From the IMG/VR virus record IMGVR_UViG_3300032047_000003, positions 1-64,000 of that record: DNA of 64,000 nucleotides; one strand, given 5' to 3'. The DNA is from a virus. Below, piece after piece: positions 2,447 through 16,386 of the stretch. The position numbers and the translations under genes were made by a program. The notes beneath the pieces were generated by a model. The model saw only the letters and a list, made by a program, of their open reading frames with translations, was not told where the DNA came from and did no database searches. Numbering within the stretch: the stretch's first letter is position 1; each line of letters starts with the position of its first letter.

Positions 2447-3490
2447 ATGGCAATTAAAAAAGTAACTGGAATACCAGAAATAGATGGAATAATTAGCGCT
2501 AGTGCTAAAAAATTTGGAAAAGAATTAGTAAGCATGGGGCCTAAAAAATCACTTTCAGAAGTAAAAGTAATTTCAACCGGTTCCATCTTCTTAGATTGCG
2601 TTTTAGGTTCTGGAGGTTTTCCAGACAACAGAATAATTGAAATCTTTGGACCTCCAAGCGCTGGTAAAACTAGCATCGCTTTACAATTCATGTCAAGATA
2701 CGTAAAAGAAAGAGGGTACGAAAAACCTCCAGTCTTCATCGATCTAGAAAGAACAACAAGCCTTCAATTGGTAGAATCAATGGGAATCGACCCTAACAAA
2801 GTTATTTTCTGTTATCCCGATACCGCTGAAGAAGCATTGGAACTTGCTAAAGATTTAGGAAATACTACTAAAGTTGGCTTTGTAGTATTCGACAGTATTG
2901 ATGCTGCTCAAGCTGAAGCAGACGTTAAACGCGACATGTCTTCTAAAGGAGTAGGTGAACTTGCAAGGCTTCTTTCAAAATCTATGCGAACCTTATCTAA
3001 AGTTGGAGACAACAATGATGTCTGTTTTATTTTTATAAATCAAATCAGAATGAAAATTGGAGTAATGTATGGCAACCCAGAAACTACAAGCGGTGGGAAC
3101 GCTTTGCCCTTTTACTCATCTCTAAGATTGAGAGTAAGCTCTAAGCCTTCTAAAACTCAACCTGGCGCTTTAGATATGAAAATCAAAGTTGTTAAAAACA
3201 AACTTGCTCCAGGCCAAAATGCAACGGCTGAATTTGAATTTGTTTGTGCAAAAGGAATTGAGCCCTACAACGACTTAGTAAGTTATGCTAAAAACCTCGG
3301 CATCTTTAGATTTGCCGGCAGCGCAGTAAAGTTGAAACTTCCAGAACAAGAAGAATACACTATGTGCACCGGAGGCTCAGCAGGATGCATTGGATATCTT
3401 CAAGAAAATCCAGAAATGGAAAATAAAATTAGGAACACCTGTTATCAAATTTCCGGAATAAATCCCCCAGAACAAGAAACACAACAATAA
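2447..3490 (+). CDS. recA: RecA-family recombinase
   Basis: ISTGS, Walker [14 protein letters not shown], Walker B VVFDS, signature [38 protein letters not shown]. Confidence 0.95.
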
Positions 3491-3498
3491 GGAAAACA

Positions 3499-4812
3499 AT
3501 GGAAAAAAACGATTTTGTTCATATGCACATGCATACTGAATACTCGCTGCTTGATGGTATTAATCAAGTAGCGAGGTTGCCTCACCATATCGCATCTATG
3601 GGTCAAAAAGCAGTAGCTATTACAGACCATGGGAATGTATCCGGCAGCTACAAGTTCTACAAAGAATGCAAAAGAGCTGGCGTAAAACCCATAATCGGAA
3701 TGGAAGCGTACTATACTGTAGAAGACAGAGCAACTAGAGAAAAAGATGATCTTGGAAACTCTTACTACCATTTAGTCTTGCTTGCAATGAATAATACCGG
3801 TTTGAAAAACTTATACAAACTATCGACGTTTGCATATACTGAAGGAATGTATAGAAAGCCAAGGATAGACGATGCTTTAATTGGAGAATATTCAGAAGGA
3901 ATAATTGCTACTACAGCTTGCCTAGGAAGCAGAATAAGTCAATTGATATTAACAGATAAAATCAAAGAAGCAGAATATGTATTAGATCATCATAGAAATC
4001 TTTTTGACAAAAGGCTTTTGATAGAACTGCAGCTCCACAAAGATCCAGAACAAATTAAAGTAAACAAAGCCCTTCTTGAGTTAGCTGACAAAAAAAACAT
4101 AGAGGTAATTTTAACAAACGATTGCCACTACACGAATGAACATGACAAAATGTTTCATGAAATCGCTCTTTGCATGCAAACTAAAACAACGCTATCCAAC
4201 GAAAAACGATTTACTTTTGGCGACATAGACGTTCACGTTGCCAATCATAACTGGATGGCTGCTAAAGCCGCATGCATGGGAATACCTTATAGAGCTTTAT
4301 CAAATACAGTTGAGTTGGCAAAACTTATCGACAGCAACTCTTATTTTGAAGATAGAAAAAACAGGTATCCTAAATACAAAAATTTCCAATATGCAAAAAA
4401 TAGCTGGGACGAACTTGAGCACATGTGCAAGCGAAAACTTTACAATATGTTTGGAGAAATGCCTCCAGCTGTGTATAGAGAAAGAATTGACTATGAGCTG
4501 TCCATTATAAAGAAAATGGGATTTAGCGACTATATGTTAATCGTCCAAGAGTTCATTGATGGAGCAAGAAGTCTAAACATACCAGTTGGCCCTGGAAGGG
4601 GTTCTGCTGCAGGCAGTCTTGTTTCCTACGCTCTAGGAATAACTAAAGTCGATCCAATAAAATATGGTCTTTTATTTGAAAGATTCCTAAATTACGGAAG
4701 GGGTTCAACTCCAATAATTTTTACAGAACAACAAAAAGCCTACATTAAAGAATCTAGCAATCACACTCACTGCACACACAAACATAAGTGTTCGTGCCCC
4801 GGAGACCACTAA
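3499..4812 (+). CDS. dnaE: DNA polymerase III alpha (DnaE) fragment 1: PHP domain plus first part of palm
   Basis: [77 protein letters not shown]. Stops just before the PDIDxD motif. Confidence 0.93.
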
Positions 4813-5309
4813 GCAATAAACATGCAACTTATCTTATTAGTGCCACCACTATGAGTAATTTCCAAACTTGTAATTGGCAAATCTCCATAAGAATCATAGC
4901 TATTCCAAGTAGTTCCGGCAGGTTGACTTCCGTCTGCAACTGAAATAGTCAAAGACCCCGGCTTACCACCCCAAACATTTGTGTGTCGGTCTGTTACATT
5001 GTCTGCACCTAAAACAGGTATAGTCAAGCCAGTAGTAGAATCAACTTCTCCGTAACCAAACTCTGGAAGAACGCTAACGTTCCCGTCAATGTCAACTATT
5101 CCAGCTTTAAAAGAAACACTTCTTCTTAAAGCTGAATTCAATACGATGCTTACAGTTTGACTTGCTTCTACTTCAATAATTATTTTAGAAGCGGACTCTC
5201 CTAATAAGCGCAATACGTCAATTTGCGATCCATTTTCAATATCTGTTAACTGAGCAGATAAACCAGCACCTTTAATGCTTGGAACCAATGTGGGACTATA
5301 AGTTGTCAT
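4809..5309 (-). CDS. hypothetical protein, possibly virion structural, inverted between dnaE fragments 1 and 2
   Basis: AAGGAG RBS; G/S/T/V-rich beta-type composition; stop overlaps the dnaE fragment 1 stop. Confidence 0.7.
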
Positions 5310-5321
5310 TTAATAAACTCC

Positions 5322-5342
5322 TTTTTCTTTTATAAAGAAAAA
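5322..5342. promoter_or_regulatory. inverted repeat in a 61-bp divergent intergenic region
   Basis: TTTTTCTTT-TAT-AAAGAAAAA, a perfect 9-bp stem abutting the RBS of the minus-strand gene; low complexity. Confidence 0.3.
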
Positions 5343-5370
5343 TTAATAATTTTTATATAAGGTATTTAAT

Positions 5371-6987
5371 ATGTTAAACAAAATCAAAAGCTTTTACATA
5401 AGCGAAAGAATAAATAAGGTTGATAAAGATTTTCTTTCATATGAAGAAGACTTTATGACAGAAGACGATGCTTCTATAATAGTATCATTATTAAAGCTCA
5501 ATAGTAAAGCAAAACTTAAAAATACACACAATAGTATTGTTCTTTACTGCACTGGCTTGACAGATGAATTTAATTTTGAAAAAGCAAGATCAAATACAAT
5601 TGATGGCAGTCCTCCAGATATTGATATTGACTTTGATGCACTAAACAGACAGAAAGCTATAGATTGGGTTGTCGAAAAATGGGGTAGAGATAACGTTGCA
5701 AATATTATTACGCACGGAACATTTAAACCTAAAAGCCTAGCAAGAGGTTATTATCGAGTTACTGAAAAAAACTCTCAGCACTTAAATGAAATTCTTCGAG
5801 AAATACCTCAAGCTAAGTTTGGTAAAGAAGCCACTATGGAAGAAATACTTAAAGCTGCCCCTAAACTCAAAACAGAAGAAAAATATTCTGATTTTTTAGA
5901 GTTTTCAGATAGATTAGAAAGCATGGTCTCTACTTTCGGAATTCACGCAGCAGGCGTAGTAATCAGTGATTTCCCTATTCACGATGTAGTTCCCATGTGG
6001 AAAAATTCAAAATCAGAAAGAATTACTCAATTTGATAAAGACGAAACAGAAGAATTGGGTTTGATTAAATTCGACTTTCTTGGCATTGACACCCTTTCAA
6101 TAATTCAAGAATCTATAAACTTGATTAAACAAACAACTGGAGAAGAAATTGACCCCTTTAGTATCTCAGATTACGACAATAAAACATATACTCTTATGCA
6201 ATCTGGACTACTTACTGGTGTTTTCCAAATGGAAACATCTGGAAAAGCCAAGCAACTTATACAAGAAATACATCCTGAAAGCATTTCAGAATTAAGCGAC
6301 ATATCAGCTTTAAATAGACCTGGCCCTATGCAAGCTGGCCTTGATAAAAATTATATCTTAACAAAAAAACAAGGATTCACCTCTCTTGATATGCCAGAGT
6401 CAGTAAAAGAAATCTTAAAAGATACGCAGTACACACTGATTTACCAAGAACAAATTATGGCTCTTTTAAATAAAATGGCCGGATTCTCCCTTAAAGAAGC
6501 CGATGATGCCAGACGTGCAATGGGTAAAAAAAAGAAAGAAGTTTTAGAAAATTACAAAGAAAAATTTATATCCGGATCCCTTAAAAACGGAATTGATGCT
6601 TTTTACTCCAAGTCCCTCTGGGAAGACATTATGGGGTTTGCAGATTATTGCTTGCACGGAGATACAAAAGTTTGGACTCGAGAATTTGGTTACATAAAGA
6701 TAAAAAACATAGTTGACGAAAAGCTAGCTTGTACGGTTGCAAGTTTTAATGGCGAAAATATTATAGAACAAAAAGTGATCCAATACTGGAATAAAGGGAG
6801 CAAAATATGTCACTCTTATGTTATAGAAAATAATAATAATATAAAATGTACTCCAGATCACAAATTCTTAAGAAACACCGGAGAATTGGAAGAGATAGGT
6901 AGAATTTTAACTAAAAATCAACACTTGAAGGAATGCTTTAAAGATGAGTATAATAAATATAGACTTAACGAAAAAATCAATCGGTAA
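5371..6987 (+). CDS. dnaE: DnaE fragment 2: catalytic palm/thumb/fingers fused to split-intein N-half
   Basis: PPDIDIDFD, GIHAAGVVI, GLIKFDFLG, GVFQMET, ALNRPGPM, IYQEQIM, RRAMGKKK, then GFADY|CLHGDT... intein; own AAGGT RBS. Confidence 0.95.
   Translation: MLNKIKSFYISERINKVDKDFLSYEEDFMTEDDASIIVSLLKLNSKAKLKNTHNSIVLYCTGLTDEFNFEKARSNTIDGSPPDIDIDFDALNRQKAIDWVVEKWGRDNVANIITHGTFKPKSLARGYYRVTEKNSQHLNEILREIPQAKFGKEATMEEILKAAPKLKTEEKYSDFLEFSDRLESMVSTFGIHAAGVVISDFPIHDVVPMWKNSKSERITQFDKDETEELGLIKFDFLGIDTLSIIQESINLIKQTTGEEIDPFSISDYDNKTYTLMQSGLLTGVFQMETSGKAKQLIQEIHPESISELSDISALNRPGPMQAGLDKNYILTKKQGFTSLDMPESVKEILKDTQYTLIYQEQIMALLNKMAGFSLKEADDARRAMGKKKKEVLENYKEKFISGSLKNGIDAFYSKSLWEDIMGFADYCLHGDTKVWTREFGYIKIKNIVDEKLACTVASFNGENIIEQKVIQYWNKGSKICHSYVIENNNNIKCTPDHKFLRNTGELEEIGRILTKNQHLKECFKDEYNKYRLNEKINR
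6649..6984 (+). mobile_element. split intein N-fragment (IntN, 112 aa), DnaE-site allele
   Basis: Block A CLHGDTKVWTREFG with Cys1; block B CTPDHKFL (TxxH). Collinear with Npu DnaE IntN (CLSYETEILTVEYG...ATKDHKFM). No endonuclease domain; ORF ends. Confidence 0.92.
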
Positions 6988-7237
6988 TCAAAGCGCTATT
7001 TTTTTCAAAAAAGAGGAATTTATTTTAAATCAAAATAATCAAAATCCATTTGTTTTATCAAATAACGCAAAACAAGACTCAGAAACAGTTCATCTGAACG
7101 GACTGTTGTTAAAAGCCAAAAATCCTAATTCCGATTATAGTCTTTCTAATAAAACTTTAAACTTAAATATTGAAACAAATATAGGCGATTTACTTACAAT
7201 CGCTTATGCAACTGCCGACACTAACGGCAGTGAGTAA
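6944..7237 (+). CDS. small beta-sandwich virion-type protein
   Basis: FVLS...SETVHLNG...DYSLS..TL.....GDLLTIAY pattern of small structural beta domains. A related pattern (VTLNG...EEY...IEF...DVICI) ends the next ORF. Confidence 0.6.
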   Translation: MSIINIDLTKKSIGNQSAIFFKKEEFILNQNNQNPFVLSNNAKQDSETVHLNGLLLKAKNPNSDYSLSNKTLNLNIETNIGDLLTIAYATADTNGSE

Positions 7238-7269
7238 ATAACAACATAAAATCCTAGGAGGGGTTATAA

Positions 7270-8694
7270 ATGAAAAGAAAATTACAACTTAAGCAAATTG
7301 ACATTACCATTGACAATGGTACTCATATTTCAATTGGCGAAACTGACTTAAAAGACAATTCAAACAATATCATTGGTAGAAAACTTGCAATTGACGACAG
7401 TAGCCTAGTTAGTCAATTAAGTACTTTGCAAAGCAATATCAATGCTGTACAAAGTGATGTCGATGGCAATGAAGCAGATGCTGATAATGCGATTGCAGCA
7501 GTCCAAGCTGACGTTGATCAAAATGAAGCTGATGCTGATACTGCAATTGCTGCAGTACAATCCGATGTTGATGCTAATGAAATAGCTGCCAACAACGCGA
7601 TTGCAGCAGTGCAAGCTGACGTTGACCAAAACGAACTTGATTCTGATGCTGCTGACACTGCTTTAAGCAATCGCCTTACCGTACTTGAAGCTGATCCGAC
7701 TACAAAAACTTATGTAGACGGCCAGATCTCAACAACTCTTGCTTCTGAAATGTCTTACAGAGGCGGAATTGATGCTAGTGCTGCAAATCCTCTTCAGGGC
7801 CTTACTGTAGGTAAAGGTGACATGTGGACTGTAACTACTGCTGGTAGTTCATTTGGAGATGCTCTAGCTGTAGGCGACATGGTTATTGCAGAAGTTGCTA
7901 ACGCTTCTATGAGTGGGCTTTCAGATTTTACTTTAGTTCAAAAGAACTTTGACCTAAGCGCTTATTCTACAACTGTTCAAATGAGTGCAGCAATTGCCGT
8001 TGTCCAATCCGATGTTGATCAAAATGAAGCTGACGCTGACGCAGCAATCGCTGCGCTTCAAGCAGATGTAGATCAAAACGAAGTCGATTCTGATGCTGTG
8101 GACACTGCTATTATAGGCGGTGCAGGGCTTGATGCTAATGGTGGCTATAGCGCTCCAGGTAACCAAGCGGCAAATCCATTTCTTCACAATGCTAGCACTC
8201 TTAAAGATGCTGATACTAAGCTCGAAACTGCAGTAGTAGCCAATGAAACCGAAATCCAAAACCTTGCTCAATCTTTAAGCACGGCATCTGGTTTCGATTA
8301 CTGCGCTTACTACACAATGAATGAAACCGATCTAAATGGTCTTGGCTCTACTCAAAATCCTGAGATTAGATTTCAAAATGCTCCTCTTGCAAATTCCCTT
8401 AAAGGTACTCATACTATCGAGTATGATGATGTTGCTGGAATCCAGCGCGACCAAAGTGGAAATATCGTTAGCCAGCATTCTCAAGAAGTACTATTAGGTA
8501 AAATACTAGTTACTTTGAACGGATTGCAATTGAGAGGTAAAACTGGAAACGTTTTTAATGCAGATCCTGAAGAATACGGTGTCATACTTAACAATAACGC
8601 TACTTCTGGTAAAGATGAGCTTGCCATTGAATTTGCAGAAGGACTACTTGACGGAAGTGACGTAATTTGCATCATGATCTCAAGAGGCATATAA
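7270..8694 (+). CDS. fibre/whisker-like structural protein with 18-aa coiled-coil repeats
   Basis: Strong AGGAGG RBS; six IAAVQADVDQNEADADxA repeats; TKTYVD neck-like motif; acidic Ala/Asp-rich with heavy GCT usage. Confidence 0.75.
   Translation: MKRKLQLKQIDITIDNGTHISIGETDLKDNSNNIIGRKLAIDDSSLVSQLSTLQSNINAVQSDVDGNEADADNAIAAVQADVDQNEADADTAIAAVQSDVDANEIAANNAIAAVQADVDQNELDSDAADTALSNRLTVLEADPTTKTYVDGQISTTLASEMSYRGGIDASAANPLQGLTVGKGDMWTVTTAGSSFGDALAVGDMVIAEVANASMSGLSDFTLVQKNFDLSAYSTTVQMSAAIAVVQSDVDQNEADADAAIAALQADVDQNEVDSDAVDTAIIGGAGLDANGGYSAPGNQAANPFLHNASTLKDADTKLETAVVANETEIQNLAQSLSTASGFDYCAYYTMNETDLNGLGSTQNPEIRFQNAPLANSLKGTHTIEYDDVAGIQRDQSGNIVSQHSQEVLLGKILVTLNGLQLRGKTGNVFNADPEEYGVILNNNATSGKDELAIEFAEGLLDGSDVICIMISRGI
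7438..7653 (+). repeat. 4 x 54-bp coding tandem repeat
   Basis: INAVQSDVDGNEADADNA / IAAVQADVDQNEADADTA / IAAVQSDVDANEIAANNA / IAAVQADVDQNELDSDAA. Confidence 0.9.
7993..8100 (+). repeat. 2 x 54-bp copy of the same repeat
   Basis: IAVVQSDVDQNEADADAA / IAALQADVDQNEVDSDAV. Confidence 0.88.
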
Positions 8695-8730
8695 TATAAC
8701 ATAATATAATAACGTAAAAACTATTGCGTT

Positions 8731-8763
8731 AGCCCCTCGTTGAAAAGCGAGGGGTTTTTTTTT
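8731..8763 (+). terminator. rho-independent terminator
   Basis: AGCCCCTCG-TTGAAAAG-CGAGGGG followed by nine T, about 36 nt after the fibre stop. Confidence 0.9.
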
Positions 8764-8778
8764 ACTTAAGGAGTAAAT

Positions 8779-9120
8779 ATGACATTCTTACAAAAAATAA
8801 ACTTGTACTACATACTGTTTTCTACCTGGCTGAAATTTTTCTTTTTATTAATAAGAAGTGATAAGAAATTTCTATTCCTACCAGAAGGCGGAACCAAAAA
8901 AATAAAGCTAATGGCAAGACCTTACATGTTGGAAGAAAAGAAAGAACGCAAAGGTCTCAAAGATAAAACAAAAACAGTCACGTACATAAACGCACTAAGT
9001 AAAACTTTAACAAGAGATGAAAATCAAAAAGAAAATTTTAAAAAATTATTAGAATATACTTTTTTATGGTATTGTTTTGAGCAACACATGGAGTTCCAAA
9101 AAGATGAAGATCAAAGCTAG
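8779..9120 (+). CDS. hypothetical protein with hydrophobic N-terminus
   Basis: AAGGAG RBS; overlaps the dnaE fragment 3 start by 17 nt; no nuclease motif. Confidence 0.65.
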   Translation: MTFLQKINLYYILFSTWLKFFFLLIRSDKKFLFLPEGGTKKIKLMARPYMLEEKKERKGLKDKTKTVTYINALSKTLTRDENQKENFKKLLEYTFLWYCFEQHMEFQKDEDQS

Positions 9121-9208
9121 CGAAAACATTGGTTATCATGATGTTTTCGATATTGGCCTTGCTGGCCCACACAACTTTCTCATAGAAGGTGGAATTTTTG
9201 CTTCTAAC
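9104..9208 (+). mobile_element. split intein C-fragment (IntC, 35 aa)
   Basis: Block F VFDIGLAGPHNF; block G IFASN followed by the Cys+1 extein CFN. Collinear with Npu IntC (VYDIGVERDHNFALKNGFIASN). Confidence 0.92.
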
Positions 9209-10330
9209 TGTTTCAATAAGTCCCACTCTATAGCATACTCCTACTTGACTTATATAACTGCTTACTTAAAAGCAAACTACCCTTGTCAATTCTTTTGCGC
9301 TTTAATGACAACTAGATCTAAATCTTTACAACCTAAAGATTGGGCTCAAAAAGCACCTCAATATGTCAATGAAGCAAGACAGCTAGGAGTAGAAATAAAT
9401 GCACCTAGCGTTAACGCTTCAAATTTAGAATTTACAATATCTCAAAATGAGATATATTTTGGATTAAACGCAATACGAGATGTAGGTAAAACAGCAGCTA
9501 AAAGTATAATGGCGGCAAGGGGAAATACTCCATTTAAAGACGTTTTCGATTTTGTTTCTAGAGTTAATACTCAAAAAGTAAATATAAAAACATTTGTTTC
9601 CCTTGTTAAAGCTGGCGCTTTTGATAAAATGGGCTATTGCAGAATAGAACTTTTAGAAATTTCACAACAGATATACGACTATTACAAAGATATTCAAGAA
9701 TACGCTCAAAGGATTCTTGATATCCAAGAAAGAAACGATTATAACAATATAGTAATTCCCAAAATAGAACGCAGAAATGAACTGCGAAAAATCTACAAAT
9801 CTGAAACCAATAGAAGACTTAAGGAAAAGCAAAAGCTTTCTGAAGCAGACTACACTAAAGTGCAAGTGGAACTAGAAGAGCTTGAAGCGTTAAACCTTAA
9901 AAAGAAAGTTTCGTTAAAAGAGAAAAACGAACCCGTAAAACCAAATGTAACAAAATATCAAAAAATAAAAATAACTCTTGCTCAAATCATTGAACAAGCT
10001 AACTACATAGGTTGTTATTTACAGACTCATCCTGCACAATTTATACAAACTAAAAATAAAATTCAAAACATGAATATAAATCAATATGGTAAAATAGCTG
10101 CAGTAGTTACATCTTTAAAAGAAATAACTACAAAAAAGAATCAAAAAATGGCTTTTTTAGAATTAGATGACTCTCAAACTATATGCGAAGCAGTTATATT
10201 TCCAAGAAGCTATCAAAAAATAATGAATCTAGATCTTAAACAAGGTGAACTTATCATGGCAGAAGTAAAAGTCCAATCTACCGATCCCTATAAGCTCATT
10301 GTCAATAAGATCAATATATATCAAGGATAA
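9104..10330 (+). CDS. dnaE: DnaE fragment 3: split-intein C-half fused to fingers end, HhH and OB domains
   Basis: ATG at 9104 with GGAG upstream. MKIK...HNFLIEGGIFASN|CFNKSHSIAY, AYLKANYP, PSVNAS, IYFGLNAIRDVG, LVKAGAFD, OB fold KMAFLELDD...EAVIFP. Confidence 0.93.
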   Translation: MKIKASENIGYHDVFDIGLAGPHNFLIEGGIFASNCFNKSHSIAYSYLTYITAYLKANYPCQFFCALMTTRSKSLQPKDWAQKAPQYVNEARQLGVEINAPSVNASNLEFTISQNEIYFGLNAIRDVGKTAAKSIMAARGNTPFKDVFDFVSRVNTQKVNIKTFVSLVKAGAFDKMGYCRIELLEISQQIYDYYKDIQEYAQRILDIQERNDYNNIVIPKIERRNELRKIYKSETNRRLKEKQKLSEADYTKVQVELEELEALNLKKKVSLKEKNEPVKPNVTKYQKIKITLAQIIEQANYIGCYLQTHPAQFIQTKNKIQNMNINQYGKIAAVVTSLKEITTKKNQKMAFLELDDSQTICEAVIFPRSYQKIMNLDLKQGELIMAEVKVQSTDPYKLIVNKINIYQG

Positions 10331-10336
10331 AAAACA

Positions 10337-11416
10337 ATGTCTAAATGGAACGAAGAAGAAGAGCACTTGCTTAAGACCTTAATAAGTACCAAATCCTATG
10401 AAGAAATTTTTTATGCATTTAAAGAAAGACACTCTAAGTGTTTGCCTGGGTTTAAAAAATTTAGATCTTTAAGAGCTATAACTAAAAAATGCGAAAAACA
10501 ATCTATTACACCTCAAAAATATAAAAAATACGAAGACCCTTACAAAAAGCGTTGGGAGAGAATAAAAGATATAACAAAAGAATATAAAGAAAAATCTGAA
10601 AGTTATTCCGTTGGAGTAAATGTAGATGTTTCTAGAAAAATACTTTGCTTATCAGATATACACTTCCCTTTTTCCTTAGAAGATGAATTAAAAAAAGCAT
10701 TAGAAGAGCATGCAGATTCCGATATTGTTGTTTTGAATGGAGACATTCTTGATGGATATATATACTCTACTTTTGCTAAAGCTAAAAGGATTGCTGCTTT
10801 AAAAGAGTATATGGCTGCTTTCGAACTAGTAGAATATTGTTCTCTTAATTTCCCTAAAGTTGTAATAGTAGCTGGAAATCACGACATAAGACCAGCAAGA
10901 GCATTGGCTTCTGCTGGCTTTGAAAAAGAAGAATCTCAAGTTTTAAGACCAGATCTTTTAGCAAGAATTGCTAATGGAGAAAAATTAAACGAAGAAGGAG
11001 ATTTAATAAAAAAACTTGATTTTTCAAATGTTTTCTATGAAAAATATGACGCTTGGTATGTCAGGATAGGTAAAACAATATTTGCTCATCCCTCTGGTTA
11101 CAGAGGTGGCCCTGGTGGAACCGCTCAAAAGCTTTATGAATATTTTATAAAAAGAATGGGAAGTGATGACTTCGACAGTATAGTCGTAGGCCATACTCAT
11201 AAAATTTACAAAGGTGTTTTTTGTAACAAGCTTTTAATAGAACAGGGCGCCATGTGCGACAGACAGCCTTATCAACATAAACCTAATTTAAGATTCCTTC
11301 ATGCTATGAATGGATATTGCATCGTGTATCAAGACAAAGACGGAAATACAGACTTTAATAAAACAACTCCAATATACTTAGGCAGTATGCTGCCTCCAAA
11401 AAAAGGAATACTATGA
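10337..11416 (+). CDS. calcineurin-like metallophosphoesterase with N-terminal Myb/HTH-like extension
   Basis: LSDIH, NGDILD, GNHD, AH, GHTH motifs; N-terminus KWNEEEEHLL. Confidence 0.85.
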   Translation: MSKWNEEEEHLLKTLISTKSYEEIFYAFKERHSKCLPGFKKFRSLRAITKKCEKQSITPQKYKKYEDPYKKRWERIKDITKEYKEKSESYSVGVNVDVSRKILCLSDIHFPFSLEDELKKALEEHADSDIVVLNGDILDGYIYSTFAKAKRIAALKEYMAAFELVEYCSLNFPKVVIVAGNHDIRPARALASAGFEKEESQVLRPDLLARIANGEKLNEEGDLIKKLDFSNVFYEKYDAWYVRIGKTIFAHPSGYRGGPGGTAQKLYEYFIKRMGSDDFDSIVVGHTHKIYKGVFCNKLLIEQGAMCDRQPYQHKPNLRFLHAMNGYCIVYQDKDGNTDFNKTTPIYLGSMLPPKKGIL

Positions 11417-11706
11417 CTCAAAAAAATATATCTATAGAAAAACTTTTAGATTTAGTTACAACTATGAAATTTAAAATAGACGCAACAAATGAACAAATTA
11501 TTAATCTTTCAATGTTGTTTGAATTTATTATGGAAAAGCTTTCAGAACAAAATATAAATCTAAGCACAGAAGATTTTGAGCCTTGGGCTGAGAAGAAATT
11601 TAAAGAGCTTGAAGAAATTGCACAAAAAGCAATCGATAACGGAATAGAAACAAAAATTCAAGAAAGAATTGACGCACACAAAAAGCAATTGGATCTAATG
11701 GAGTAG
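11413..11706 (+). CDS. hypothetical helical protein
   Basis: Overlaps the upstream stop; coiled-coil-like composition. Confidence 0.65.
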   Translation: MTQKNISIEKLLDLVTTMKFKIDATNEQIINLSMLFEFIMEKLSEQNINLSTEDFEPWAEKKFKELEEIAQKAIDNGIETKIQERIDAHKKQLDLME

Positions 11707-13908: not shown

Positions 13909-16386
13909 ATGTATATAACAAATGTAGATGAAGTCGTACCTGTTCTGAGGTCTCGACTAAGGGATTATTTAACCCTAAAACTTAAAATAAGAAGCAATGC
14001 TAGAAAGATAAAATGTTTCGCTCATGACGATAATGATCCGTCTATGCATTTTAACCCTAAAAGCAATGATGAAACAGTCAAGTGCTTTGCTTGCGGTTGG
14101 AGTGGAGATATTTTTGCAGCTGCTGCAGTAATAGACAACCTTCCTAGTAGCGGTCCAGAATGGATTACTCAAACTATACCAAAGCTTTGCGAAGAGCTTA
14201 AAATAAACGTTAAGCTTGGAGCTCCCACTTTAGCTGATAAAGAAAAACTAAAAGCTTACAAATTGTGTCAGGACGTAAACGATATTGTATCAAATTACGA
14301 CTCTAACAATTCTTATGCTTCAGGCAGAAACTGGCCACTAGAATATATAAATATATCTTCTATACCCGAAGAGACTTTAAAGTCTTCCTTAATTCAACTC
14401 GGTTGGTCAGATATTGACATTGCCAAGAGTATGTTAATTAGAACGCGAAATTTTACTTTTTTTGGAGAAGACAGAATAACCTTCACTATCAAAGACCATC
14501 TTTCGAGACCAATCGGATTCATAACAAGACCTGTAGGCGACAATGTAAAATCAAAATACATAAATAGTCCAGAAACTTTAATTTATCAAAAGTCTCAAGC
14601 GCTTCTAGGAATAGATATAGCTAAAAAATATATCAGAAATTCTGATATATATATTGTTGAAGGTCCAGGAGACTTACTTCAGCTCTACAGAATTGGAGTA
14701 TATAACGCTGTCGCTGTTTGCGGAACAGCCTTAACTGCTCAGCATTTAGCTTTAATAAAATCTTTAGGTTGCAATAAAGTTAATTTGAATTTCGACTGGG
14801 ATGAAGCAGGAACAATGGCTACACAAAGAGTTCTAGAAAATGTCATCAAAAAAGTTTCAGGAATAAATATAAAAATTGTACTCAAGCCTGAAGGGGATCA
14901 CAAAGATCCAGATGACTTTTTAAAAGATTGCAGAGATGCTTCCTGCTATTTGGACCTACCAATGATGTCTGCTTTCGAATGGCAATTAAACAGAATGTCA
15001 GATAACGAAAGCCCTGATATCATTTGCAAGAAAATGATACCTTCTATTGCTTCTGAACCTGCAGCAATCAAAAGAGAAATGCTAGTAAAAACTCTTTCAG
15101 AGTATACTGGAATTTCTTCTAGATCCATAAACACAGATGTGGAGAGTATAAGAAACAATAAGTTTGAAGAAAGAAAAGAGCAATTAGCAAGTCAAGCTGA
15201 AAGATACATTCAAAGTGTTCAAGCAGACCCAGACAACATTATGGCTCATTTAGCTGAACATGAAAGAACTGTTGAAAGAATAGAAAAAGAATACAAAAGA
15301 GCTAGCCTTGGCGTAAACTATCAAATTAGCAGGTACAATGCCGTTCAAGAACAAAGAAGACTTAATGATTCTGACGAAAACAACTCTACTTTCAAAATGG
15401 ATCATTTTGGCCACTTTGAAGAAGCTATGGCCGGTGGACAAAATTGGACATCAGGATGCTTAATGTATGTTGGCGGAAGAGCAAATAGTGGTAAAACTGC
15501 AACAACTTTGCTAATAGGATGCGATGTCGCTTTAAGCGATGAAAATGCATTAGTAATCTTTCACTCAACAGACGATAGCTACGATCAAATTGAACCAAGA
15601 ATCAAATCAAACCTTTATCACATGACAGCTTCAAATTTTCCAAAATTAACAATAGGAATGATCGTTCAACCGCACTTATATTTAAAAAACCAAGAAGACT
15701 CATATATAGAAGGTTATAAGCAAGCTGATCAAATATTTCAAGGTTTGATTAATGAAGAAAGAATTGTCATAATTGACGCTGAAGACGGCAGTACTTTGAC
15801 TGTTTTAGAAAGAAATCTTAGATACTATAGACAGAAATATCCTTCCAAAAAAATACTTTTAATTTGTGATAACACGCACAACTATATGGATTTTTTAAAT
15901 ATGGATCAATCTATGAGAATGACTATGATATCCAATCAGCAAAAAAATCTAACAGCAAAATATAAATGTTGTATTGTTGCTACTGCTGAATATAGGAAGA
16001 ATATGCCTATGGACCAATCTAAACTCAAACTTCCAGTAGACGACGATTTAGCAGATGCAAGAGCTTTGATGTATAGACCTAATATTATTTTTCACGTTTA
16101 CAATGACTTACACGACAGAAAAGATCATGCAGAAATTTTTTGGAAAAGCGAAGACGATAAGGTGTATCCAAGACTCTTGTTGCATTTTACAAAAAACAAA
16201 ATATCTGGCTTTAAAGAGAAACTTGTGTTAGACTTAGATATAACAAACATCTTTCTTAATCCTAAAAACCCCGAAATAGCGAGAAGGGAATCTGCAGAAT
16301 TTATTGACAAAAAGATGTCAAAAAGAGTATCTTTGCAAGATAACAATTACGTAGAAATAGAAGCGACAGAATATGAACAATACTGA
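13909..16386 (+). CDS. fused DNA primase-helicase (DnaG zinc finger + TOPRIM + DnaB-like ATPase)
   Basis: CFAHDD...CFAC zinc finger, KYINSPET, IVEGPGD, FDWDEAG, KDPDD; Walker A GGRANSGKT, LICDN, C-terminal TKNK. Confidence 0.9.
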   Translation: MYITNVDEVVPVLRSRLRDYLTLKLKIRSNARKIKCFAHDDNDPSMHFNPKSNDETVKCFACGWSGDIFAAAAVIDNLPSSGPEWITQTIPKLCEELKINVKLGAPTLADKEKLKAYKLCQDVNDIVSNYDSNNSYASGRNWPLEYINISSIPEETLKSSLIQLGWSDIDIAKSMLIRTRNFTFFGEDRITFTIKDHLSRPIGFITRPVGDNVKSKYINSPETLIYQKSQALLGIDIAKKYIRNSDIYIVEGPGDLLQLYRIGVYNAVAVCGTALTAQHLALIKSLGCNKVNLNFDWDEAGTMATQRVLENVIKKVSGINIKIVLKPEGDHKDPDDFLKDCRDASCYLDLPMMSAFEWQLNRMSDNESPDIICKKMIPSIASEPAAIKREMLVKTLSEYTGISSRSINTDVESIRNNKFEERKEQLASQAERYIQSVQADPDNIMAHLAEHERTVERIEKEYKRASLGVNYQISRYNAVQEQRRLNDSDENNSTFKMDHFGHFEEAMAGGQNWTSGCLMYVGGRANSGKTATTLLIGCDVALSDENALVIFHSTDDSYDQIEPRIKSNLYHMTASNFPKLTIGMIVQPHLYLKNQEDSYIEGYKQADQIFQGLINEERIVIIDAEDGSTLTVLERNLRYYRQKYPSKKILLICDNTHNYMDFLNMDQSMRMTMISNQQKNLTAKYKCCIVATAEYRKNMPMDQSKLKLPVDDDLADARALMYRPNIIFHVYNDLHDRKDHAEIFWKSEDDKVYPRLLLHFTKNKISGFKEKLVLDLDITNIFLNPKNPEIARRESAEFIDKKMSKRVSLQDNNYVEIEATEYEQY

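Follow-up and report, generated by a model that had tools for sequence, protein, structure and literature searches.

The gene examined here is dnaE, which encodes the replicative DNA polymerase of a phage known from the IMG/VR virus record IMGVR_UViG_3300032047_000003. This record is 111,567 bases long, and its first 64 kb, the whole stretch of DNA that was analysed, are called the window below. The only polymerase of this phage is probably a DnaE-type polymerase III alpha subunit (Pol III alpha) made from three gene products that are joined in two different ways. Pieces 2 and 3, separated by break 2, would be ligated by protein trans-splicing of a split intein, and piece 1, separated from piece 2 by break 1, would associate non-covalently with the spliced chain. 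The three-piece DnaE is very probably the working polymerase of the phage and not debris. Furthermore, its layout is the norm in a large lineage of marine phages, not a one-off.

The three pieces and their distribution

The initial annotation, a reading of the sequence by itself, had described DnaE as encoded in three pieces that lie in native order and have each their own start and stop. The open reading frames (ORFs) listed for the window, the Pfam domains and PHROG 405 all confirm this description. The three ORFs, given with their length in amino acids (aa), are the following:

3499–4812, + strand: DnaE piece 1, 437 aa, with the PHP domain and the N-terminal (dNTP-binding) palm subdomain
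5371–6987, + strand: DnaE piece 2, 538 aa, with a head, the catalytic Asp strand, the thumb, the fingers and the N-terminal half of an intein (IntN)
9104–10330, + strand: DnaE piece 3, 408 aa from the ATG at 9104 (417 aa from the TTG at 9077), with the C-terminal half of an intein (IntC), the HhH domain and the OB domain

Together, these pieces cover the full DnaE domain set with no loss. Piece 1 matches the PHP family PF02811 (E 2.5e-46) and positions 2–104 of the PF07733 profile, which is continued by piece 2 (positions 99–260). Piece 2 also carries the fingers (PF17657, E 2.6e-45) and the N part of an intein, and piece 3 contains the HhH (PF14579, E 3.9e-27) and OB (PF01336) domains. In the same way, PHROG 405, a profile of full-length DNA polymerases, is tiled at 40–443, 441–790 and 786–1071 by pieces 1, 2 and 3, respectively. 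The ORF listing runs the frame of piece 3 back to the TTG at 9077. The ATG at 9104, which is preceded by a GGAG located 10 nt 5′ of it, is the likely start of this piece, because IntC then matches the Npu IntC from residue 2.

The motifs expected for catalysis are carried by two of the three chains:

4588–4605, + strand: GPGRGS motif of piece 1
4675–4692, + strand: FERFLN motif of piece 1
5608–6648, + strand: core of piece 2, including the catalytic strand PDIDIDF (5614–5634), the third catalytic Asp, D235 (6073–6075), the thumb and the fingers, and ending with ...GFADY

The PHP metal ligands of piece 1 (H8, H10, D19, H44, E69, H91, C141, D208 and H210) are invariant or conserved in at least 90% of 120 homologues, and the same set shows little or no variation at GPGRGS, R395 and R401. 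Among 108 homologues of piece 2, D83, D85 and D87 are invariant and D235 is conserved in at least 90%. The AlphaFold2 (AF2) model of piece 1, whose mean confidence score (pLDDT) is 84.7, aligns over residues 1–402 with residues 1–399 of the Escherichia coli alpha subunit (Z 35.8), and the model of piece 2 aligns with the same protein up to residue 754 (Z about 17). The sequence features of a DnaE-type enzyme are therefore all found, i.e. the PHP ligands, a Pol-beta-like palm with its GS motif and its three Asp (on two chains), the fingers, the HhH domain and the OB domain. Binding of the incoming triphosphate by Pol III alpha relies on the GS loop and on these arginines, and metal binding relies on the aspartates. 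As these residues are split between two chains, the active site of the phage enzyme would have to be composite.

Related loci were retrieved from IMG/VR with an alignment query, a single-protein query having returned none. Eighty loci were examined, and the lineage of the window is defined by 24 of them, with 52–68% identity. Piece 1 stops at the break 1 site in all 24 loci. In 23 of them, a separate piece 2 starting with the head follows after a spacer of 251–4020 nt; the contig of the last one (L004) ends earlier. Break 1 is also found in more than 100 metagenomic protein clusters. Almost all of the 120 best homologues of piece 1 (58–88% identity) are 415–483 aa long and end with the same kind of tail, and the best homologues of piece 2 all start with the head. 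The latter are about 500–560 aa long and end in IntN in 107 of 119 cases; in the other 12, they reach about 800–830 aa, piece 3 being fused to piece 2 without any intein. Within the lineage, IntN is present in 17 of the 24 loci. Piece 3 lies 2.8–5.1 kb after piece 2 in five loci encoding IntN and 7.7–13.5 kb after it in five checked genomes. Five lineage loci have no intein at break 2, which indicates that break 1 predates the split intein.

A search limited to longer proteins detected no fusion of piece 1 with piece 2 in the lineage. The longer proteins that display at least 62% identity correspond to a piece 1 interrupted by a LAGLIDADG intein (762–817 aa; P0115, P0247–P0251), and full-length DnaE proteins are at most 46% identical. 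Two relatives are rated 100% complete, one of them with terminal repeats. With regard to DnaE, they hold only the two PF07733 halves, and neither PolA nor PolB was found in them. Likewise, the genome record of the window yielded neither PolA nor PolB.

Additional insertions are observed in piece 2 of some relatives, either after core residue 236 (about 1.25 kb; L019-L021:13564-14818) or after residue 306 (0.4–1.1 kb; L023:16168-16553 and L025:14207-15273). With such insertions in the DnaE pieces, some phages harbour at least three interruptions of one polymerase.

The two breaks

Break 2 is, by homology, a split intein related to the Npu/Ssp DnaE intein and located at the cyanobacterial site. 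It includes the following parts:

6649–6987, + strand: IntN, 112 aa, starting with CLHGDT (residue 427 of piece 2) and carrying the block B motif T..H
9104–9208, + strand: IntC, 35 aa, ending with ...GIFASN
9209–10330, + strand: C-extein of piece 3, with first the +1 Cys in CFNKSHS, then the end of the fingers, the HhH domain and the OB fold

IntN matches the Npu/Ssp DnaE intein in the Protein Data Bank (PDB; E 8.3e-13), and IntC matches the IntC of Ssp/Npu (E 3e-5), the alignment to the Ssp precursor (PDB 1zde) continuing through the C-extein CFN.S. The junction, ...DY/C ... ASN/CFNKSH (the slashes marking the expected splice points), occupies the position of the Npu/Ssp DnaE intein junction. 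The set of splicing residues is complete (Cys1, T..H, terminal Asn and +1 Cys), and C427 (Cys1), T494 and H497 (block B) are invariant among the 108 homologues of piece 2. The IntN part of the AF2 model matches 4qfq and 4lx3 (Foldseek and VIA). We strongly infer that pieces 2 and 3 are trans-spliced, as the initial annotation had proposed, because both halves are homologous to experimentally characterised DnaE split inteins and because all the catalytic residues are in place.

Break 1 falls just before the PDIDIDF strand. At the point where a contiguous DnaE would proceed to the catalytic strand, piece 1 enters a tail, and piece 2 opens with a head:

4699–4809, + strand: tail of piece 1, residues 401–437 (about 30–37 residues), with no counterpart in contiguous DnaE
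5371–5607, + strand: head of piece 2, residues 1–79, a conserved helical module

The tail displays a conserved P-(L/I)-I-F-x-x-E/Q-M motif followed by a variable end that is Cys/His-rich or of the ...LPF type. P405 is invariant, and I407 and F408 are conserved in at least 90% of the 120 homologues of piece 1; the pLDDT of this region is low in the monomer model. In the head, N51, N54, S55, L58, F67, R73 and G79 are invariant among the 108 homologues of piece 2. AF2 predicts that this module is helical (pLDDT 82–92), unlike the all-beta HINT fold. No intein family of Pfam matches either end of break 1. No intron model of Rfam matches at this break with an E value up to 10, the same search finding, as a positive control, a group I intron at the break 1 site of a distant relative. 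Break 1 therefore shows what is seen in genes in pieces, i.e. two ORFs that each have a start and a stop codon of their own, with neither intein nor intron between them.

The junctions of break 1 are not an assembly artefact, because contigs obtained independently, in another study and from another sample, match the window exactly over 4366–4903 and 4927–5502, i.e. across both edges of gap 1. More public contigs are identical over parts of gap 2 and piece 3. A contig joint linking 4664 to 5617 in run X2 was considered as a joined form of the gene and rejected; it has only 22 letters on one side and a high depth, and is taken as the contiguous dnaE of another organism.

The head probably arose by duplication of the palm segment, which is still present in piece 1, and by subsequent decay of the copy. 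Indeed, in a BLAST comparison with the contiguous DnaE of Streptomyces phage Asten, residues 372–405 of piece 1 and residues 54–82 of piece 2 both fall on residues 381–414 of the Asten protein. More generally, BLAST and hhalign place the head on the DnaE segment that is equivalent to residues 327–405 of piece 1. When the head is compared by hhalign with the palm N-segment of diverse DnaE proteins, 46–59 columns are co-linear in the expected register (E 0.008). The helices of the head and those of the palm segment of piece 1 match one to one between the two AF2 models, and the piece 2 model aligns with residues 328–754 of E. coli alpha in seven of the 11 DnaE entries listed. The head is devoid of the GRGS motif, a lack that speaks for piece 1 being required for catalysis.

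The non-covalent attachment of piece 1 is the best reading, because no intein or intron is detected at break 1, because the tail and the head are conserved, because no fused relatives are found and because this DnaE is the sole polymerase of the complete relatives. According to the proposed mechanism, the two intein halves, IntN at the C-terminus of piece 2 and IntC at the N-terminus of piece 3, would first associate and splice ...GFADY to CFNKSHS..., which would lead to a chain carrying the catalytic Asp strand, the thumb, the fingers, the HhH domain and the OB domain. In a second step, piece 1 would join the spliced chain non-covalently and bring the PHP domain with its intact metal ligands and the dNTP-binding palm (GPGRGS and the two Arg of FERFLN-x-GR). 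The composite active site would then combine triphosphate-binding residues from piece 1 with three metal-binding Asp from piece 2. The conserved tail and the helical head would mediate or stabilise this assembly, the head being probably a relic of the breakage of the gene at this mobile-element hot spot. Covariation between tail type and head type was considered as a sign of contact and left unused, as both follow phylogeny.

Several points weigh against this scenario. We infer the binding, the splicing and the activity of the pieces, the splicing of pieces 2 and 3 purely from homology. Support for the head as a duplicate is modest: with a narrower first set of targets, hhalign aligns the head with the C-terminus of piece 1 over 10 columns at E 0.12, which is not significant, and structural alignment gains just 7–28 residues of the head. 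Furthermore, the AF2 model of piece 2 alone puts the head roughly at the place expected for the palm segment of piece 1. The head and this segment cannot share one place. Lastly, the completeness of the genome record of the window is estimated at 73%.

One possible but doubtful role of the head would be that of a placeholder, which would keep the catalytic half folded while preventing its activity until piece 1 takes the place of the head and supplies the genuine GRGS/Arg site. If so, the activity and the coupling to the PHP proofreader would be switched on only upon arrival of a separately transcribed subunit. This would constitute a subunit-exchange checkpoint in a replicative polymerase, in addition to the intein-dependent completion of the other half.

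It is unlikely that the spliced product of pieces 2 and 3 is autonomous and uses its own head as the N-subdomain of the palm, piece 1 being a separate PHP exonuclease (proofreading) subunit that is dispensable for catalysis. The confident fold of the head, its overlay on E. coli alpha from residue 328 in some alignments, the invariance of its N-S and R73 and the conservation of all the PHP metal ligands of piece 1 would fit such a division of labour. However, nothing in the head corresponds to the triphosphate-binding GRGS loop, and the retention of GPGRGS, R395 and R401 of piece 1 in 120 sequences would be hard to explain if these residues were unused.

It is far less credible that break 1 is healed covalently, either by a very atypical split intein with H-N/S (residues 53–55 of the head) as its C-terminal junction or by splicing at the RNA level. 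N54 and S55 are indeed invariant, the residue that precedes them is usually a His, and the same site hosts a split intein (L079) and a group I intron (L073) in other phages. Nevertheless, the tail and the head total just about 110 aa, the head is helical instead of displaying an all-beta HINT fold, no intein family of Pfam matches the region, and the end of the tail is variable and lacks a block A nucleophile. Moreover, splicing at N54/S55 would leave an insertion of 27 aa before the catalytic strand, no intron model matches, a conserved gene lies on the opposite strand in the gap, and the tail and the head are conserved as protein. Finally, the view that the pieces result from gene decay or from a faulty assembly, a host or another phage polymerase ensuring replication, might be suggested by the incomplete genome record and by the unrelated cargo genes inside the gene, but this has hardly any probability left and is largely refuted by the invariance of the catalytic residues in more than 100 homologues at 53–88% identity, by the recurrence of the layout, seen in 24 independent contigs as well as in two complete genomes without other polymerase, and by the contigs of another study that are identical across the junctions of break 1.

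The break 1 site, the gaps and the neighbouring genes

The origin of break 1 would lie in an invasion by a mobile element followed by the fixation of the fission, since the same site hosts an intron, a split intein and intein-less splits in other phages. In L073, a group I intron of about 440 nt devoid of any ORF (11206–11653) is located exactly before the catalytic Asp strand of a phage DnaE, the exons ending with ...GLPD and restarting with IDTDV.... It matches RF00028 with 36.9 bits (E 8.6e-8), below the gathering score of 50. In L079 (9486–11214), a split intein occupies the break 1 site (...RK/CLTENN ... LVHN/SMPDIDVDF). Its IntN starts with CLTENN after FERFMNPTRK, its IntC ends with LVHN before SMPDIDVDF, and the gap between them contains a long ORF that looks like an endonuclease by its GDYWHCNP-type motif. 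L079 is a classic fractured DnaE located at the break 1 site. Two other relatives, L040 and L077, whose proteins are 33–34% identical to piece 1, display the same intein-less split and a head of the NS-helix type. In L077 (11275–12237), the gap harbours a deoxycytidylate-deaminase-like ORF with HAE ... PC..C motifs.

In the window, the gaps contain the following features:

4809–5309, − strand: P0004, 166 aa, the sole gene of gap 1, converging on piece 1 and diverging from piece 2, which is 61 nt away
6944–7237, + strand: ORF of 97 aa in gap 2, with no homologue in the related loci
7270–8694, + strand: fibre-like protein of 474 aa in gap 2, with AAVQADVDQNE-type repeats (phrog_30158)
8731–8756, + strand: strong intrinsic-terminator-like hairpin, with an 11-pair stem including 6 GC pairs and a T9 tail
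8779–9120, + strand: ORF of 113 aa with a hydrophobic N-terminus, whose end overlaps the start of piece 3 by 17 nt

P0004 is preceded by a strong ribosome-binding site (AAGGAG) and lies on the strand opposite to that of an otherwise one-strand module. Homologues are found in the same gap of L003, L005, L006, L007, L015, L023, L024 and L025, so that this conserved but fast-evolving phage family of small beta-rich proteins is present in at least nine phages including that of the window. Its members, all encoded on the − strand (L003:11358-11747, L015:11661-12029, L024:11809-12219, L025:12049-12456 and L023:14508-14927), share an N-terminal AGDQID..LGRPAR-like motif and a C-terminal ...SIEI...I.W-like motif. 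P0004 has no Pfam or PHROG match and no nuclease motif, and its neighbours in a protein atlas are viral hypothetical proteins only. As P0004 is the sole occupant of gap 1, no mobile endonuclease is found there by motif, Pfam or PHROG.

The 474-aa ORF of gap 2 is probably cargo and not a homing endonuclease. Its GC content is 0.436, versus about 0.33 around it, and it matches no Pfam family. Two RNA-library runs from seawater contain contigs identical to 7582–8403, the only part of the stretch seen in them. This is a weak hint that the 474-aa ORF is highly expressed, DNA carry-over being also possible, and is uninformative on the expression of the DnaE pieces. No endonuclease was detected in the three ORFs of gap 2 (Pfam with E up to 10, PHROGs) or in 10 gap ORFs of the relatives, in searches that a divergent one could escape. 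In the relatives, the interval between IntN and IntC is a variable island of 3–13 kb that includes very large ORFs encoding up to 1341 aa (L010:14059-18084, L005:14881-18108 and L003:13808-15007). One protein of gap 2 in a relative carries a Laminin_G_3 (ConA-like lectin) domain, the only convincing Pfam match there.

The layout of the genes and a consensus scan, the only sources used for this purpose, suggest three putative transcription units: recA with piece 1, piece 2 down to the terminator, and piece 3 with the preceding 113-aa ORF and the genes downstream. That the assembly of the polymerase would be gated by these separate units, as proposed in the initial annotation, is speculation.

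The neighbouring genes include:

2447–3490, + strand: RecA/UvsX-like recombinase (PF00154, E 2.2e-65), directly 5′ of piece 1
10337–11416, + strand: metallophosphoesterase (PF00149, E 1.2e-12), directly 3′ of piece 3 and kept in the relatives
13909–16386: primase fused to a DnaB-like helicase, 825 aa

Nearly all the genes up to about 21 kb lie on the + strand and correspond to a replication/recombination module that encodes the RecA/UvsX-like recombinase, DnaE, the metallophosphoesterase, a Cas4-like nuclease and the primase-helicase fusion. The far side of the window carries large structural genes on the − strand, including one encoding a baseplate wedge protein. The window shares with its relatives the order RecA, piece 1, gap, piece 2, gap, piece 3, metallophosphoesterase, Cas4-like nuclease. 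In L012, L015, L017, L018, L019 and L021, the RecA-like gene located upstream of piece 1 is itself interrupted after about residue 205–210 by 0.3–1.4 kb, which may correspond to an intein, an intron or another split. The GC content of the window is about 33%, and it is held by public runs of marine or seawater metagenomes. The GenBank phage collection contains no relative with more than 60% identity over a long stretch and thus points to no cultured relative or host.

Comparison with known split genes

The initial annotation had pointed to no described tripartite DnaE of this kind. This holds for the combination, as no description of a full-length DnaE in three pieces that combines both mechanisms was found in the literature searched. 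Uniqueness would be too strong a claim, as the layout is the norm in the lineage and each type of break has a published precedent. The three-piece DnaE is thus apparently common in nature and yet undescribed. If the proposed assembly is true, this replicative polymerase has an active site made of two polypeptides, and protein trans-splicing has to complete its catalytic chain beforehand. It would provide a natural test case of the degree of fragmentation that an essential enzyme tolerates without loss of function. This layout is not rare but general in a widespread ocean phage lineage with genomes of roughly 110–190 kb. Within one protein, DnaE, the evolutionary routes that lead from invasion by a mobile element to permanent gene fission can be compared. 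Moreover, both DnaE gaps are landing sites for fibre-like and lectin-like cargo genes. For engineering, there are two candidate parts for protein assembly, namely the tail/head pair and the DnaE split intein in its phage version.

Break 2 resembles the cyanobacterial split DnaE intein (Ssp PCC6803 and Npu; PDB 1zde, 4qfq and 4kl5) in both halves, in the block residues, in the junction ...Y/C ... N/CFN(K)S and in size (35 aa for IntC and about 100–110 aa for IntN). However, its host is a phage, its halves share one strand and are separated by 2.1 kb (by up to 13.5 kb in the relatives) instead of being located at distant chromosomal loci, and the gene that it splits carries a second, intein-less break. 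The fractured genes of marine metagenomes are also replication genes broken by a split intein in phage-like marine DNA, their parts lying on the same strand with coding sequence between them; the fractured DnaE genes (DnaE-1 to DnaE-3) have integration points other than the cyanobacterial one (Dassa et al. 2009, PMC2677866). Break 2 differs from these in being located at the cyanobacterial site and in having intervening ORFs that are fibre-like or lectin-like.

Phage replicative polymerases encoded in parts are already exemplified by gp43 of the Aeromonas phages 25 and 44RR, whose two cistrons (43A/43B) yield products that co-purify and are active without splicing (Petrov 2010, via PMC2988022). 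As related through the latter source, this polymerase differs from the phage DnaE in belonging to family B and not C, in having a single break and in having no intein. In group 2.2 jumbo phages, a minimal Pol III alpha module is split at the same subdomain boundary as break 1, the NTP-binding and the Mg/DNA-binding parts being carried by separate proteins that are predicted to reconstitute the module (Iyer et al. 2021, PMC7824862). Unlike the full-length DnaE described here, which is a sole polymerase and carries a split intein, these modules are minimal, devoid of PHP, HhH and OB domains, encoded far apart and accompanied by a family B polymerase.

Break 1 would work most like the intein-free genes in pieces that encode NrdA in phage Aeh1 (Friedrich 2007; Crona 2011, PMC3045599), an analogy drawn from its organisation. 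In both cases, an essential enzyme is cut in a critical region into two ORFs without intein or intron, with tails at the cut ends. The NrdA gene of Aeh1 was cut by the mobE endonuclease, which is still present there, whereas no endonuclease is detected in gap 1 of the phage dnaE, and the head of piece 2 resembles a duplicate of host-gene sequence. In Aeh1, the NrdA-a and NrdA-b fragments assemble non-covalently, and the unique C- and N-terminal tails at their cut ends are essential for activity (PMC3045599); a comparable assembly is what the conserved tail and head of the phage DnaE would point to.

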